A stretch of DNA of 64,000 bases, from IMG/VR virus record IMGVR_UViG_3300033121_002356, positions 32,001-96,000 of that record; one strand, written 5' to 3'. The notes under the pieces were generated by a model. It ran no database searches. It saw nothing but the letters and a program-made list of their open reading frames with translations, and was not told the origin of the DNA. The position numbers and the translations under genes were made by a program. This document shows positions 1 to 4,624 of this stretch, piece after piece. Origin of the DNA: a virus. Its lineage: Duplodnaviria; Caudoviricetes. The first letter of the stretch is position 1. Each line of letters opens with the position of its first letter.

Positions 1-781
1 GAGGCTTTCTTTTCTCCTCTCCTCTATCTAAAATATCAGAATCAAACCAACTATCGCTTACTGGCTCTAATTCAACATCGTATTCATTTAAAAATCTGAG
101 CATATCGTTATGCCTAAAAGCGGCAGGGTTACATATTTTTGTAGGGGCAGTTGCCTGATAATGATGAAATTTCTTAGAAATATTCTCTTTATGCCTGTAC
201 CCCCAATGAATAGTCTTAGCCTCATTATCTAGTCCTGTAACAGACCACCAAGGGCGCTTAGCTATAACCTTTCCTAGATGCAGCCCTACCTTATCCTTAT
301 TAGCCAACTCTAACCCCTTAGACCTAACATAAACTCTTTCACACTCATTATTGCGCCACTCCTTATCTACTCTTTGCCAATACCCGCTTCTCCATAAATG
401 TACATTATGCATGACCCACATGCCTACATCTGGATAGTCATGAACTGCTTTATGAATTGCTGCGGCGCCATCTTTATAGCAATTTGGAGTAAAGGTTACG
501 TCAATACTTAAAGTAAGTATATGCGTTAAATCTGGGTAAAGTTCTAATGCTTTATTTATAAGCCTCTGTGTGTTGTCTTGCTCATAAATGAATCTATTCA
601 CATCATTGCGTAATACATTAGGGGTATATTCAAGCATTCGTTCATACGAACCATCTGTAGAAGCATCGTCCATAAGTACGATTCCATCAACTACTTTAAA
701 AATATTATTTAGAAATCTATCTAAATGCCCTAATGATAGCTCATTATAACACGGGGATATACCGATTAGTTTAACAGTCAT
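1..781 (-). CDS. GT2-family (GT-A fold) glycosyltransferase, 3'-truncated by the window edge; not in the supplied ORF track
   Basis: Manual translation from the ATG at 781: MTVKLIGISPCYNELSLGHLDRFLNNIFKVVDGIVLMDDASTDGSYERM...HILTLSIDVTF...MHNVHLW. It has the GT2 xPxYNE and DDxSTDG motifs; the DxD position is degenerate (SID). The frame stays open to position 1. Confidence 0.8.
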   Translation of the reverse strand, partial: MTVKLIGISPCYNELSLGHLDRFLNNIFKVVDGIVLMDDASTDGSYERMLEYTPNVLRNDVNRFIYEQDNTQRLINKALELYPDLTHILTLSIDVTFTPNCYKDGAAAIHKAVHDYPDVGMWVMHNVHLWRSGYWQRVDKEWRNNECERVYVRSKGLELANKDKVGLHLGKVIAKRPWWSVTGLDNEAKTIHWGYRHKENISKKFHHYQATAPTKICNPAAFRHNDMLRFLNEYDVELEPVSDSWFDSDILDRGEEKRKP

Positions 782-787
782 AGTATT

Positions 788-1387
788 TTACTTATTGTTG
801 TAGTAATTATAAATTTCATCCATATGCTGACGACGAGAAGCTTTTACAGCCCAATGCCCATGTTGTATCCCGACGTTTTGCACAAAACAGGTCTTTTTAG
901 CACCAACAATTACCTCGTGTATAGGAAGAGCATATTTAATAACCCCATTATTCTTATACAATCTTGTTTGTGGGTCTTTAGCCCCACTAACCGGATACTC
1001 TTTTGTTTTTTCTTTGTCTAACCAGTTATATCGAGGAAATCTAAAAGCATCGTATCCAGGATTATCAGGAGAATCGGCATGTAGTAGCACGTTTCCGAAT
1101 TTTTCAAAATCATCTTCTTCTAACCACTCGTCGGGGTCAATCATCATAATCCAGCTCGATGTGCATTTAGATAATGAAAAATTTCTAGCTTTAGCGAAAT
1201 CTCTGTCTTTAAAATCCCAATCATATATTTTATCTGTATATTTTTTAACAATATCTCGGGTACCATCAGTAGAGCCAGTATCAACAGCGATAATTTCTCG
1301 CGTAAATTGCCCAAAACACTTTAAAGCAGTTTCTATACATTCCTCTTCATTATAAAACAACATCGCCCAGCTTACATTATAAGACAT
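788..1387 (-). CDS. GT2 glycosyltransferase of the SunS / flagellin-glycosyltransferase / WaaE-like subgroup
   Basis: YNEE, VDTGSTDGT, DFAKARN, IDPDE (DxD) and PIHE motifs; GGGAGG RBS upstream. Confidence 0.88.
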   Translation of the reverse strand: MSYNVSWAMLFYNEEECIETALKCFGQFTREIIAVDTGSTDGTRDIVKKYTDKIYDWDFKDRDFAKARNFSLSKCTSSWIMMIDPDEWLEEDDFEKFGNVLLHADSPDNPGYDAFRFPRYNWLDKEKTKEYPVSGAKDPQTRLYKNNGVIKYALPIHEVIVGAKKTCFVQNVGIQHGHWAVKASRRQHMDEIYNYYNNK

Positions 1388-1393
1388 ATAGAG

Positions 1394-1399
1394 CCTCCC
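1394..1399 (-). promoter_or_regulatory. Shine-Dalgarno site for the GT2 gene
   Basis: GGGAGG 6 nt before the ATG at 1387. Confidence 0.7.
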
Positions 1400-2112: not shown

Positions 2113-2115
2113 AAC

Positions 2116-3261
2116 TTATTCCTTTATCAATCTATTAATCTCACTAATCATTATATCTGATACTTTATCATGAGTATACTTATTTTTTATATCCTCTCTT
2201 GCCTTTGCCCCAACTGTAGCAGCAGCGTCTCTATTAGCTTCTACCTCTTTCATTATAGTAATAGCTGTTTTAAGATTAGGCTCCGGCCACATTTGGTCTG
2301 CTGTATACCAGTTAAAATAGGGCATACCCAATGTTGGAGACCAAGTATAATCAACCAACCAACTATTCTCGGAATTCATGAAGTCCTCATTACCACTACC
2401 ACCCACCCCAATAGTAGGCTTACCGGCCGCCATAGCATGAAAATACCCTAAACCCCACCCCTCAGCATGTGCAAGGGATACATAGCAATCTCCTCTATTA
2501 TGTAGCTTTAACATCTCTGATTCAGAGAGTATTTCGGTTACAAGTACTAAACGAGGCGCGGGCATATCCGGGTAAAACTTCATGTTTCTTTTAAGGTTTA
2601 TAATATTTTTAACAATTCTATCTATCTCTCCGTCTGAATTATCACATCCATAGGTTTTAAATAATAAAACTACATCATCCCGACCAGCAAAAGCGGAATA
2701 AAAACATCTCAATAATGAATAAGGATTTTTTCTCTCAGTCCATTGACCGATAGAATAGAATACATAATCATTATCGTTAATTCCTTCAATTAATAGCTTT
2801 GATTTCTCCGCTTCAATGGGGGCAATATCTATGCCGTGAGGAACAACCCCTATTGGTTTATCAACACCTGAATTTTTAAAAACTTCTACGTTCCATTTGC
2901 AGGGAACAATGAGAGCATCAACACCCCCACAGTGAGCAACCCACTCTCTATGAATTCTATCCGTTTCCCAAACAGTCAAATTAATGTTTTTCTTATTCTC
3001 TTCGCGATAAATGGGGATATGCTCTGGAGTTAGATGAATCAAATTAATATTGTAATCAATTTTCTTATTTACTAAACTATTTAAAATCTGAGCATCTTTT
3101 CCTAAATTAGGTCTTAATTTTTCAAAGGATACCGGATTTATAGTTATCGGCACCCCCTTTGAATGAAGAGCCAAAATATAGTCTCTTGACGCTTTTGCAT
3201 ACCCAGAATTATCAAATACCGGAGCAGTATATTTTATACCTTTAATATTTCCTAAATCCAT
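2116..3261 (-). CDS. GT4-family (GT-B) glycosyltransferase
   Basis: N-terminal SGYAKASR, TVWETD, VPHGID, IGQWTERKN, AEGWGLGYFHAMAAGKP. Confidence 0.88.
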   Translation of the reverse strand: MDLGNIKGIKYTAPVFDNSGYAKASRDYILALHSKGVPITINPVSFEKLRPNLGKDAQILNSLVNKKIDYNINLIHLTPEHIPIYREENKKNINLTVWETDRIHREWVAHCGGVDALIVPCKWNVEVFKNSGVDKPIGVVPHGIDIAPIEAEKSKLLIEGINDNDYVFYSIGQWTERKNPYSLLRCFYSAFAGRDDVVLLFKTYGCDNSDGEIDRIVKNIINLKRNMKFYPDMPAPRLVLVTEILSESEMLKLHNRGDCYVSLAHAEGWGLGYFHAMAAGKPTIGVGGSGNEDFMNSENSWLVDYTWSPTLGMPYFNWYTADQMWPEPNLKTAITIMKEVEANRDAAATVGAKAREDIKNKYTHDKVSDIMISEINRLIKE

Positions 3262-3271
3262 TCTATTCTCC

Positions 3272-4624
3272 TCAAAAAATAAAAGCGCGAGTGGGGGTTT
3301 GTCCTTGACTGCCTGGCGCCATTAAAGCGTATTTCTGAGCGTTTAACGCCTTCATGGCTTGAGAAAATAAAGAAAACCAACGAGGCATCACACCGTTTTC
3401 CCACGTTAAGTTATTAATAACCCACTCATAAGCAGCCTCTGCTTTTTCAGCAGCTTCTTCTCGATTGTTAAATACATACTCCATCTTTGCTACTAAAGAA
3501 CTTAAATCCGTCAAAGGCCTTATTACACCTAAATCATTTATCAACGATACATAATTATTAAAATTATTCCCTGAATTCGCCAAGTATCCTCGTTCCTCAT
3601 TTTCTCCTATAAGTTCTATAAAAGAAGTATTACGCGGACCAATTATAGGAGTCTTTGTCGCAAATGATTCCGTATTACAAAGTTCCCAACCACCCCCTAA
3701 TGAATTCGTAATATAGCAATCTGCCATGGAATATAGTTTGTTAATTACAGCCGTTGGGTAACCATTTTTTACGTCTAATTTATTAGGGAAAAATACGTCA
3801 ACTCCATCTCTTAATCCTATATTATTACAAGTATCATACAAATTATGACCAAGAGGGTCTCTTGGCATACAATGAGAATAGAGAATGGCTTCTCCCGGAT
3901 GCCTTCTTAGGAACTCTTTAAAAGCTATCAATAGTCTTGGGTAATCTTTTCTTGGCTGGTTTCTATCAACCCTAAAGAATATAAATTTATTATCTATATC
4001 GGGGACCGTTTTAAAAACTTCACGACGAAAATCTCTAGAGAACTCCTTGGGAAGAGGGTAGAAATCTTCAGGATTTACCCCATGAGGAATTACGTTTAGC
4101 TTGCGAGCTATAGGAGGGTAAACCTTAGAACAAAGTTCGTGCCCAAACTTTGTATAAGTAACGGGGCAATCTACAGCAGAAGCAGCTTTTATCCACTGTT
4201 GCCCTGGTATTCCATCAATTGGAAAGTAAAAAATAGAAACAAACTTATTGTTCAACACCCTCTTAGACTTTTCCATTAGCTCTTCTAAATAAGAACTAAC
4301 CACAAAGGTGTCTTGCAATATAAAGACTATATCAAACTCCACATTCTTTTTCATTAGAATTTCTTGAAAGCGTGAAGCTCCATACGGGTCCTTTTTAGGA
4401 CTATTATTATTCCCGGCTGGAAATATTGTATAACGACGTTGGTCAGGGTCTGGCTCACCCCAATTGTTTACTGCTAAAACTGTTATATCGAATAGACCTG
4501 TTTTATACAAATTATCAAGAATATTTCTTGATACATTATTAAAACCAGTAGTTGCCCCCAAGTCTCCATAATAAAGTAACTTCCATTTATTACCGTCGAG
4601 TCTTTTTGGTAATTCAATAGTCAT
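3272..4624 (-). CDS. GT4-family (GT-B) glycosyltransferase
   Basis: YYGDLGATTGFNNV, IPHGVNPEDF, RNQPRKD, SLGGGWELCNTESFATKTPII. Confidence 0.88.
   Translation of the reverse strand: MTIELPKRLDGNKWKLLYYGDLGATTGFNNVSRNILDNLYKTGLFDITVLAVNNWGEPDPDQRRYTIFPAGNNNSPKKDPYGASRFQEILMKKNVEFDIVFILQDTFVVSSYLEELMEKSKRVLNNKFVSIFYFPIDGIPGQQWIKAASAVDCPVTYTKFGHELCSKVYPPIARKLNVIPHGVNPEDFYPLPKEFSRDFRREVFKTVPDIDNKFIFFRVDRNQPRKDYPRLLIAFKEFLRRHPGEAILYSHCMPRDPLGHNLYDTCNNIGLRDGVDVFFPNKLDVKNGYPTAVINKLYSMADCYITNSLGGGWELCNTESFATKTPIIGPRNTSFIELIGENEERGYLANSGNNFNNYVSLINDLGVIRPLTDLSSLVAKMEYVFNNREEAAEKAEAAYEWVINNLTWENGVMPRWFSLFSQAMKALNAQKYALMAPGSQGQTPTRAFIF

Follow-up and report, generated by a model that had tools for sequence, protein, structure and literature searches.

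The 64-kb window analysed here comprises bases 32001-96000 of a single 124,721-bp IMG/VR record (IMGVR_UViG_3300033121_002356), a fragment of a jumbo phage (CheckV completeness 44%), and opens on part of a gene island for glycan synthesis. This island spans 15.1 kb and 17 genes (genome 21516-36624) and encodes seven glycosyltransferases (GTs), two methyltransferases (MTs) and an amino-sugar pathway; window positions 1-4624 hold its upstream third. All five open reading frames (ORFs) that a first-pass annotation had placed there were recovered on the minus strand, which codes every gene in the window, and the gene row that it saw running off the window continues leftward for 12 further genes. 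The island specifies a soluble, phage-encoded glycan pathway on a cytoplasmic acceptor, and we infer which acceptor is used, the order of the steps and the identity of the sugars. Glycosylation of the phage's own proteins, probably those exposed on the virion, is the best-supported reading, and we consider its chance of being correct to be about even. The features that are new here are a hypervariable architecture at a fixed site, a phage-specific GT4 pair held in common with a head-module cassette of the Synechococcus phage S-CBS4 lineage, and the size of the pathway.

The GT4 pair and its exchangeable cassette

Both GT-B/GT4-like proteins of the island, GT4_450 and GT4_381, match phrog_2170 (Table 1), a family annotated as 'glycosyltransferase', and score 25.8 and 25.7 bits with Glycos_transf_1 against a gathering cut-off of 26.4. 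Among five scanned members of the GT4_450 family, P0053 and P0045 reach at least 38.3 bits and P0011 reaches 38.6. An AF2 model of GT4_450 (pLDDT 89.5, pTM 0.88) displays the two-Rossmann GT-B fold. When this model was used as a Foldseek query, at least 500 PDB matches were obtained, with GT-B enzymes throughout among the matches listed. The best was the chlorovirus NY-2A glycosyltransferase B736L (3oy2, E 4e-21), which outranked every cellular GT4 enzyme, and GlgM, BshA, MshA and PglA were the next neighbors. On this modelled fold, GT4_450 is assigned as a GT-B enzyme. GT4_381 aligns both to GT4_450 (E 4e-8) and to 3oy2. A fold search of BFVD returned generic viral GT-B proteins only and was set aside, as were Pfam 'GT4-conflict' matches of the relatives, which are C-terminal, marginal (about 25-28 bits) and uninformative.

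A total of 391 GT4_450 homologues were found in the protein collection, and the protein belongs to a phage-typical GT4 subfamily. The motif NRNQxRK is invariant across this family, the consensus of which includes EGWGLSxTEAMA; GT4_450 of this genome reads GGGWELCNTESFA, with the first Glu replaced by Gly. The corresponding motif of GT4_381 is AEGWGLGYFHAMA, with His at the second position; both proteins are predicted enzymes whose activity is not to be judged from sequence. GT4_381 has remote homologues in Streptomyces, Arthrobacter and archaeal rod-shaped viruses. In Verrucomicrobiaceae (Prosthecobacter and others), a distant relative of GT4_450 (25-30% identity; L165-L215, genome contigs) is regularly part of the chromosome, and close relatives of GT4_450 in genome contigs lie only on small contigs of metagenome-assembled genomes from unrelated phyla, which are probably mis-binned phage.

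To place the island among its relatives, a family alignment was required: megablast with window positions 1-8000 matched none of 50,697 phage records, and viral-contig scans with the single GT4_450 or nuclease protein likewise found nothing. With the GT4_450-family alignment, 350 viral contigs were recovered, and 80 loci were kept for comparison. Homologues of GT4_450 and of the PD-(D/E)XK nuclease are each present in 78 of these 80 loci and those of GT4_381 (35-54% identity) in 74, with DnaJ (66/80) and RuvC (59/80) in the same gene order as here. The remaining homologues are those of GT2_199 (23/80), the GFO oxidoreductase (14/80), SDR_333 (12/80), DegT (11/80), MT_235 (9/80), the HAD protein (6/80) and the ATP-grasp enzyme (2/80). 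The common gene order reads helicase-primase-...-DnaJ-RuvC-nuclease-GT4_450-(0-4 genes)-GT4_381-(variable block)-clamp loader-PolA, and GT4_450 adjoins the nuclease gene in 78 of the 80 loci. In one relative (L016), the GT4 pair stands alone ahead of PolA. The first-pass annotation had envisaged a GT2 that initiates the glycan, GT4 enzymes that extend it and a methyltransferase that caps it. Given that the GT4 pair is the conserved core whereas the GmaR-like GT2 (GT2_199) is accessory, this order is probably to be reversed, with the pair as the predicted priming core.

The content of the cassette was tallied by Pfam family in 16 variable blocks holding 139 ORFs. GT2 enzymes (22) and methyltransferases (~15) were the most numerous, accompanied by hexapeptide acyltransferases (10), SDR proteins (8), sulfotransferases (6), DegT (5), GFO (5) and UDP-GlcNAc 2-epimerases (3); no DNA-modification or export family is among the 25 commonest cassette families listed. 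Pairs of loci with GT4_450 proteins 65-80% identical have on average 23% of their cassette ORFs in common (range 0-89%), fractions that are approximate because the 10-kb flank cuts some cassettes. Cassette genes are exchanged rapidly, and the flanks and the GT4 pair are conserved. The locus thus behaves like a bacterial O-antigen or capsule locus, with fixed flanks and anchor enzymes and swappable tailoring genes: in both, a hypervariable cassette of GT and sugar-tailoring genes lies between conserved flanks, and its content is swapped faster than the flanks diverge. By contrast with such loci, the island is virus-borne and has no initiating phosphoglycosyltransferase, Wzx, Wzy, ABC exporter or any membrane protein. 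The relatives range in GC content from 0.32 to 0.52, a spread that probably reflects diverse hosts.

Some GT4_381 homologues are split by LAGLIDADG inteins at no fewer than three sites, after about residues 175, 272 and 316, the second of which adjoins the AEGWGLG motif (L009 11315-13498; L024 11368-14883, with two inteins; L037 11258-13465; L077 12081-14318). Inteins are uncommon in glycosyltransferases, and their presence indicates a strongly constrained enzyme.

This layout, in which a conserved GT4 gene precedes GT and MT genes that are exchanged as a cassette, recurs in a second, unrelated lineage, within its head operon. In the cultured phage S-CBS4, a GT4_450 homologue, a galactosyltransferase and a methyltransferase dependent on S-adenosylmethionine (SAM) are encoded between the portal and the head protease/capsid genes. 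An unchanging order, terL-portal-gp13-GT4like-(variable)-gp18-20-protease-MCP, is seen in 34 viral contigs of this lineage, and the variable part consists of galT and an MT, of an FkbM methyltransferase, or of GT32-like, DUF4422, C-methyltransferase and MT genes. These loci (L118-L151; for example L144 9167-12938 and L151 3709-9584) lie in ~70-kb cyanophage-like genomes. In Tetrasphaera phage TJE1, the GT4_450 homologue comes after genes for a nucleotidyltransferase, a kinase, an epimerase and a methyltransferase, a few genes upstream of the terminase genes.

A similar arrangement was observed in the cultured 190-kb Microcystis phage Mel-JY01 (PP395634.1 75959-94924, locus L087), for which no publication was found. 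The order there is clamp loader, SAM synthetase, PD-(D/E)XK nuclease, GuaB, two GTs, a GT4-like 455-aa protein, a GT-A enzyme and a methyltransferase, with a further GT beyond two hypothetical genes. Mel-JY01 is a possible experimental model; the GT4 pair offers concrete, testable enzymes, and S-CBS4 and Mel-JY01 are cultured systems in which to test them.

Candidate acceptors of the glycan

None of the 17 island products has a transmembrane segment (highest Kyte-Doolittle 19-mer mean below 1.6), so that the lack of a membrane anchor noted earlier for the named enzymes holds for the whole island. No polytopic protein was found among 444 cassette ORFs from 63 distinct relatives, and no protein with four or more transmembrane-like hydrophobic segments in two complete relatives (269 and 298 kb). 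Phosphoglycosyltransferase, flippase, polymerase, ligase and Gtr-type membrane proteins were absent from every cassette and from the same two relatives. A search of the record and of three complete relatives, including one with terminal repeats, detected no tyrosine integrase (Phage_integrase), so that the IMG/VR label 'provirus' has no integrase to support it. Given that neither a polytopic protein nor an integrase was found, lysogenic seroconversion is excluded, and so is a lipid-linked export pathway complete in itself.

GT2_199 provides a link to known protein glycosylation. The motif set DFxxARN...DxDE...HE attributed to it by the first-pass annotation is present as DFAKARN, IDPDE and IHE, and these align with DFSAARN, IDADE and IHE of GmaR, the enzyme that attaches O-GlcNAc to Listeria flagellin. 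In the PDB, GmaR is by far the closest match (22ao, E 2.5e-19; residues 5-160, the GT domain), and SunS-type S-glycosyltransferases come next at ~1e-7. SunS (TIGR04195) is also the best NCBIfam family (E 6.7e-11; 41.7 bits against a cut-off of 350), and GT2_199 covers no more of SunS than its N-terminal GT domain (residues 57-151 of 335-422). The comparison with GT2 enzymes that act on proteins or peptides was therefore well chosen. Unlike GmaR and SunS/ThuS, with which it shares the GT-A core and the three motifs, GT2_199 has no C-terminal acceptor-binding/TPR part, lies far below the SunS cut-off and is encoded by an accessory gene.

In the mechanism that we propose, the invariant GT4 pair would put the first sugar or sugars on an acceptor conserved in the phage clade. 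The cassette would make unusual amino or deoxy sugars from host UDP-sugars and would then extend and methylate the chain; in this genome it would draw on the GmaR/SunS-like GT2, four more GT-A enzymes, two SAM methyltransferases, the GFO oxidoreductase, DegT, three SDR proteins, an ATP-grasp enzyme and a KdsC-like phosphatase. Related phages would bear serotype-like glycan coats. Virion proteins as the acceptor are supported by the proximity of GT2_199 to GmaR and SunS, by the chlorovirus enzyme as top fold match of GT4_450, by the place of the S-CBS4-lineage homologue in the head module and by that of the TJE1 homologue near terminase genes. Of the virion glycosylation pathway put forward by the first-pass annotation, the soluble phage-encoded pathway stands; that it ends on a virion protein is what we infer. 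A more specific proposal is tentative and somewhat less probable. It holds that this widespread clade of jumbo phages and, independently, the S-CBS4 lineage possess an O-antigen-like hypervariable locus, in which two phage-specific GT4 enzymes would prime virion proteins and exchangeable cassettes would build methylated, acetylated, sulfated or aminated glycans, giving 'serotypes' under diversifying selection.

If this is true, the enzymes behind phage glycan 'serotypes' would have no kinship with the one phage system for virion glycosylation that has been validated, and sugar coats would be a common, evolving trait of environmental phages, with the GT locus on 350 viral contigs and a parallel in a cyanophage head operon. 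It would bear on adsorption, particle stability and recognition by grazers or immune systems, and also on annotation, where such genes mostly appear under host takeover or 'cell wall biosynthesis'.

Several observations weigh against a virion acceptor. The record has low completeness, and no acceptor is identified in it: PHROGs supplies no names for the S/T-rich structural proteins, so that no capsid or tail-tube acceptor was picked. The first-pass annotation had pointed to very Ser/Thr-rich appendage proteins. Many structural proteins do have an S+T content of 18-27%, compared with 8-15% for non-structural proteins, but no mucin-like tracts are present in them. The tripeptide ASG was considered as a 'sequon' and was not used as evidence, because two relatives are ~1.9-fold enriched in it equally outside the structural block. 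The island lies in the replication module and not beside virion genes. Clamp-loader and PolA genes border it on one side and PD-(D/E)XK nuclease, RuvC, DnaJ, primase and DnaB genes on the other; it is embedded among these replication and recombination genes and probably co-transcribed with them. Intergenic gaps within the island range from -29 to +17 bp, with a single exception of 89 bp, and its GC (0.353) and GC3 are like those of the remaining genome. Finally, no similarity was detectable between the GTs of the island and Che8 gp108-110, the validated virion-glycosylating enzymes discussed below, and a thymidylate synthase (TS)-type gene accompanies the GT4 pair in many relatives, as considered with the DNA data.

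The ASG counts themselves were as follows. Structural proteins (window 16079-52292, genome 110855-124628) contain 30 against 11 expected, a number reached by 0 of 2000 shuffles, with 10-13 for each of five permutations of the tripeptide; non-structural proteins contain 2 against 3.6 expected. SGT is enriched in all three genomes.

Freeman and co-workers are said to have described in 2023 (Cell Host Microbe 31:1216) the glycosylation of mycobacteriophage virions by Che8 gp108-110. To our knowledge, virion glycosylation has so far been shown for a few mycobacteriophages only, and its discoverers reportedly saw little evidence for it elsewhere. The genes for gp108-110 are located at the far right genome end, near exonuclease-domain and HNH endonuclease genes. 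Given that these validated GTs also lie outside the structural module, the position of the island is no objection to a virion role. The two systems are alike in soluble, phage-encoded cytoplasmic GTs, often accompanied by a methyltransferase, in gene positions among non-structural genes and in a proposed product on exposed virion proteins. They differ in that the island is 15 kb long, with its own sugar-nucleotide pathway, seven GTs and a hypervariable layout that keeps its site across a jumbo-phage clade. The hhalign comparison of the GT4_450 family with gp108 gave a probability of 0.5%, and BLASTP of GT4_381 against gp108 and of GT2_199 against gp109 and gp110 gave no significant match; since no similarity is detectable, a function in common would be convergent. 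O-glycosylation of mycobacteriophage virions (Che8, Corndog, Myrna) is cited here through PMC12619734 and PMC13313380.

Giant viruses offer a further comparison. Chlorovirus capsid glycans and Megavirinae fibril glycans are made by clade-specific glycosylation gene clusters. As with the island, the virus itself codes for rare-sugar synthesis (aminotransferase, dehydratase, methyl and acetyl transfer) and for GTs, without host endoplasmic reticulum/Golgi or membrane export, and the content differs between related viruses; a chlorovirus enzyme is also the best fold match of GT4_450. By contrast, the host here is bacterial or archaeal, the virus is tailed and the GT4 anchors are phage-typical, and the comparison is one of fold likeness and not of orthology.

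With regard to DNA as the acceptor, GATC does not occur in the 124,721 bp of the record, where 273 (Markov) or 416 (composition) sites are expected, and zero sites in the window compare with 178.7 ± 12.7 in dinucleotide-preserving shuffles. CTGCAG is likewise missing from the record against about 15 expected, and 4-mer and 6-mer palindromes are significantly depleted in the record and in both complete relatives. Given this avoidance, the DNA is judged to be selected by ordinary restriction enzymes of type II; bulky base glycosylation would make the avoidance of sites pointless, and DNA glycosylation is thereby disfavored. The most-avoided hexamers differ by genome (GACGTC; GTCGAC, GAGCTC, CTCGAG), and the relative L081 is likewise GATC-free over 21 kb.

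No TS-family, TET/JBP or C5-methylase gene was found in the 44%-complete record. Among five near-complete relatives, two encode a ThyA that scores at canonical level (362-405 bits) and lies 90-100 kb away from the locus, and at least two encode a canonical ThyX. TET/JBP was found in none of the five, a weaker negative given that the TET model is silent in all control genomes too. S-CBS4, TJE1, Mel-JY01 and a 95%-complete S-CBS4-like contig contain no TS-family or TET gene. In 33 of the 80 related loci, a TS-type gene is situated between the two GT4 genes, and three kinds were distinguished: a canonical ThyX (206-222 bits); a divergent 200-aa ThyX-like protein with a language-model similarity of 0.97 to FAD-dependent TS clusters; and, in 15 loci, a divergent ThyA-like protein of 233-265 aa (42-47 bits). 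The ThyA-like protein keeps the catalytic Cys and the uracil-specifying Asn, is missing ~40 C-terminal residues, and has SPO1 gp29-type dUMP hydroxymethylases among its best phage matches (35% local identity). Examples of the slot are L012 11273-11971, L077 11284-12078, L022 11321-12070, L035 11442-12254 and L043 11335-11952. Given that each record searched has one TS-type gene, the slot gene looks like an in-place replacement of ordinary thymidylate synthesis; the short ThyA-like form could be a dUMP hydroxymethylase. In the present genome the slot is empty, with a 10-bp gap between the GT4 genes. The slot and the total avoidance of GATC are independent leads, to nucleotide metabolism and to restriction pressure in the clade.

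If DNA were the acceptor, sugar would be attached by the GT4 pair to hydroxymethyl-pyrimidine (or to some other modified base) and built up further by the cassette enzymes, and the genome would be shielded from host nucleases, as in T-even phages. This would suit an island between recombination and replication genes, and phage clusters for DNA sugar hypermodification, such as T4 gp42 with its alpha/beta-GT, similarly have GT-B, GT-A and epimerase genes near those for DNA polymerase, clamp and helicase. A resemblance to BshA and MshA is also seen in GT-B enzymes validated to act on DNA, and inteins such as those of GT4_381 homologues are typical of, although not exclusive to, DNA-metabolism genes. 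The TS-type gene exactly between the GT4 genes, with its form resembling dUMP hydroxymethylases, recalls the ThyS- or 5mYOX-associated GT clusters of Pyle et al. (bioRxiv 10.1101/2023.12.21.572611), where a TS-type gene beside GT genes was a neighborhood used to predict DNA sugar hypermodification. Against this, the restriction sites are avoided, the record has none of the base-modifying genes sought, the ThyA or ThyX of near-complete relatives is canonical, and S-CBS4, TJE1 and Mel-JY01 have the GT family with no TS-family or TET gene. Moreover, the products implied by seven GTs together with sulfo-, acetyl- and methyltransferases are oligosaccharides that exceed every known DNA modification in size by far, and T4 beta-GT is not among the GT4_450 fold matches listed (ranks up to 49). 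DNA glycosylation is accordingly regarded as very improbable for this phage and may be likelier in carriers of the ThyA-like gene. The earlier judgement that DNA fits less well, and that neither flippase nor hydroxymethylase is in view, agrees with the GATC avoidance and gene content of this record; the TS-type gene of the relatives, which this genome does not have, bears on the neighboring hydroxymethylase gene that the first-pass annotation had named as a counter-sign.

The host envelope is a decidedly unlikely target. Here, soluble GTs, like TarM/TarP, would work from the cytoplasmic side of the membrane on lipid-linked intermediates of host O-antigen, capsule or teichoic acid, so that the receptor is changed, superinfection is blocked or progeny are kept from sticking to debris. 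Cell-wall GT4/GT2 enzymes are often soluble or peripheral, as are the cell-envelope enzymes TarM, WaaG and PglA, so that missing transmembrane helices do not exclude such a role; PglA, PimA and PimB are among the fold neighbors of GT4_450, and the cassette content resembles that of O-antigen loci. The membrane machinery is nevertheless missing from the cassettes and from the two complete relatives, and with no integrase lysogenic conversion is unlikely. A phage-encoded acceptor better fits a GT4 pair that is kept across the GC range of the relatives and probably in diverse hosts. The S-CBS4-lineage homologue inside a head-gene operon argues in the same direction, and it also speaks against a non-virion target or a free glycoside, such as a host factor of defence or translation that glycosylation inactivates, a phage protein that is internal or injected, a soluble oligosaccharide or a compatible solute. 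That explanation seems unlikely, even though GlgM, BshA, MshA, TreT and sucrose-phosphate synthase, all fold neighbors of the GT4 proteins, use small acceptors, expression is probably early or middle with the replication genes, and no acceptor has been identified: a single intracellular target would not explain the rapid diversification of the cassette, and seven GTs would be excessive to inactivate it.

Further island enzymes and flanking genes

Table 1. Predicted genes of the glycan island and its right-hand flank (window coordinates unless marked genome)
Feature	Position	Strand	Assignment or evidence
GT2_299, GT-A/GT2-like glycosyltransferase	1..781 (ORF 2-781)	-	PF00535 22 bits, cut-off 23.3
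GT2_199, 199 aa, small GT-A glycosyltransferase, GmaR/SunS type	788..1387	-	PF00535 (Glycos_transf_2) E 3.8e-16
MT_235, 235 aa, class I SAM-dependent methyltransferase	1405..2112	-	Methyltransf_11 E 6.8e-17
GT4_381, 381 aa, second GT-B/GT4-like enzyme of anchor pair	2116..3261	-	Glycos_transf_1 E 9.2e-6; phrog_2170 E 6.2e-22
GT4_450, 450 aa, first GT-B/GT4-like enzyme of anchor pair	3272..4624	-	Glycos_transf_1 E 8.8e-6; phrog_2170 E 4.9e-39
84-aa ORF, function not assigned	4627..4881	-	Between nuclease gene and GT4_450
Conserved right-hand frame (nuclease, RuvC, DnaJ)	4882..7302	-	Pfam matches
PD-(D/E)XK (Cas4/AddB-like) nuclease	4882-6078	-	Pfam
RuvC	6071-6559	-	Pfam
DnaJ	6544-7302	-	Pfam
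Island gene left of window			GT2, 283 aa
Island genes left of window			308- and 307-aa GT-A proteins, paralogues of GT2_299
Island gene left of window			ATP-grasp ligase
Island genes left of window			Three SDR epimerase/dehydratases
Island gene left of window			Second SAM methyltransferase
Island gene left of window	genome 26692-27240		KdsC-type HAD phosphatase
Island gene left of window			GFO/IDH/MocA oxidoreductase, closest UDP-GlcNAc 3-dehydrogenase, E 1.3e-38
Island gene left of window			DegT aminotransferase, E 1.8e-84
Island gene left of window			83-aa ORF

The SAM methyltransferase MT_235 had been described as not of the DNA type, and its class I fold family and the lack of any DNA methylase match in Pfam or NCBIfam agree with this. 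Its nearest NCBIfam families are UbiG/UbiE-type small-molecule O/C-methyltransferases, and it is probably a sugar O- or N-methyltransferase. The N-terminal 260 of the 299 residues of GT2_299 are encoded inside the window, and the gene ends 118 bp to its left. Together with the 308- and 307-aa proteins, GT2_299 forms a triplicated GT-A family in the island (45-49% identity). Searched against the PDB, a profile of the three proteins matched GT2 enzymes (E 7e-8); for GT2_299, an AF2 model built from a seven-sequence alignment was poor (pLDDT 49.5).

Sugar-nucleotide enzymes had been sought left of the window, and the GFO oxidoreductase, DegT and SDR genes were found there. Given that none of the 12 island genes left of the window reaches an NCBIfam equivalog cut-off, the exact sugars are not nameable. 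The likeliest product would be an amino sugar derived from a host UDP-sugar that is oxidized at position 3 or 4 and transaminated, and it would possibly be N-acylated by the ATP-grasp enzyme. A KdsC-like HAD gene adjoins the clamp-loader gene at the far cassette end in L060, L074, L079, L083 and G2 (254212-254730), and in this genome six glycan genes intervene between the two. The HAD phosphatase may be part of the conserved frame and not of the cassette.

The 84-aa ORF has no Pfam, PHROG or NCBIfam match and no homologue in the related loci. Further to the left of the window, the large subunit of ribonucleotide reductase (1016 aa, genome 11822-14872) is split by a LAGLIDADG-domain intein. Carbohydrate-active genes also occur outside the island, at genome 6227-10699, where a weak DeoC/LacD-type aldolase (228 aa) is encoded near a diadenylate cyclase gene, along with a 501-aa protein containing a GDSL/SGNH hydrolase domain and a 288-aa GH53-like protein.

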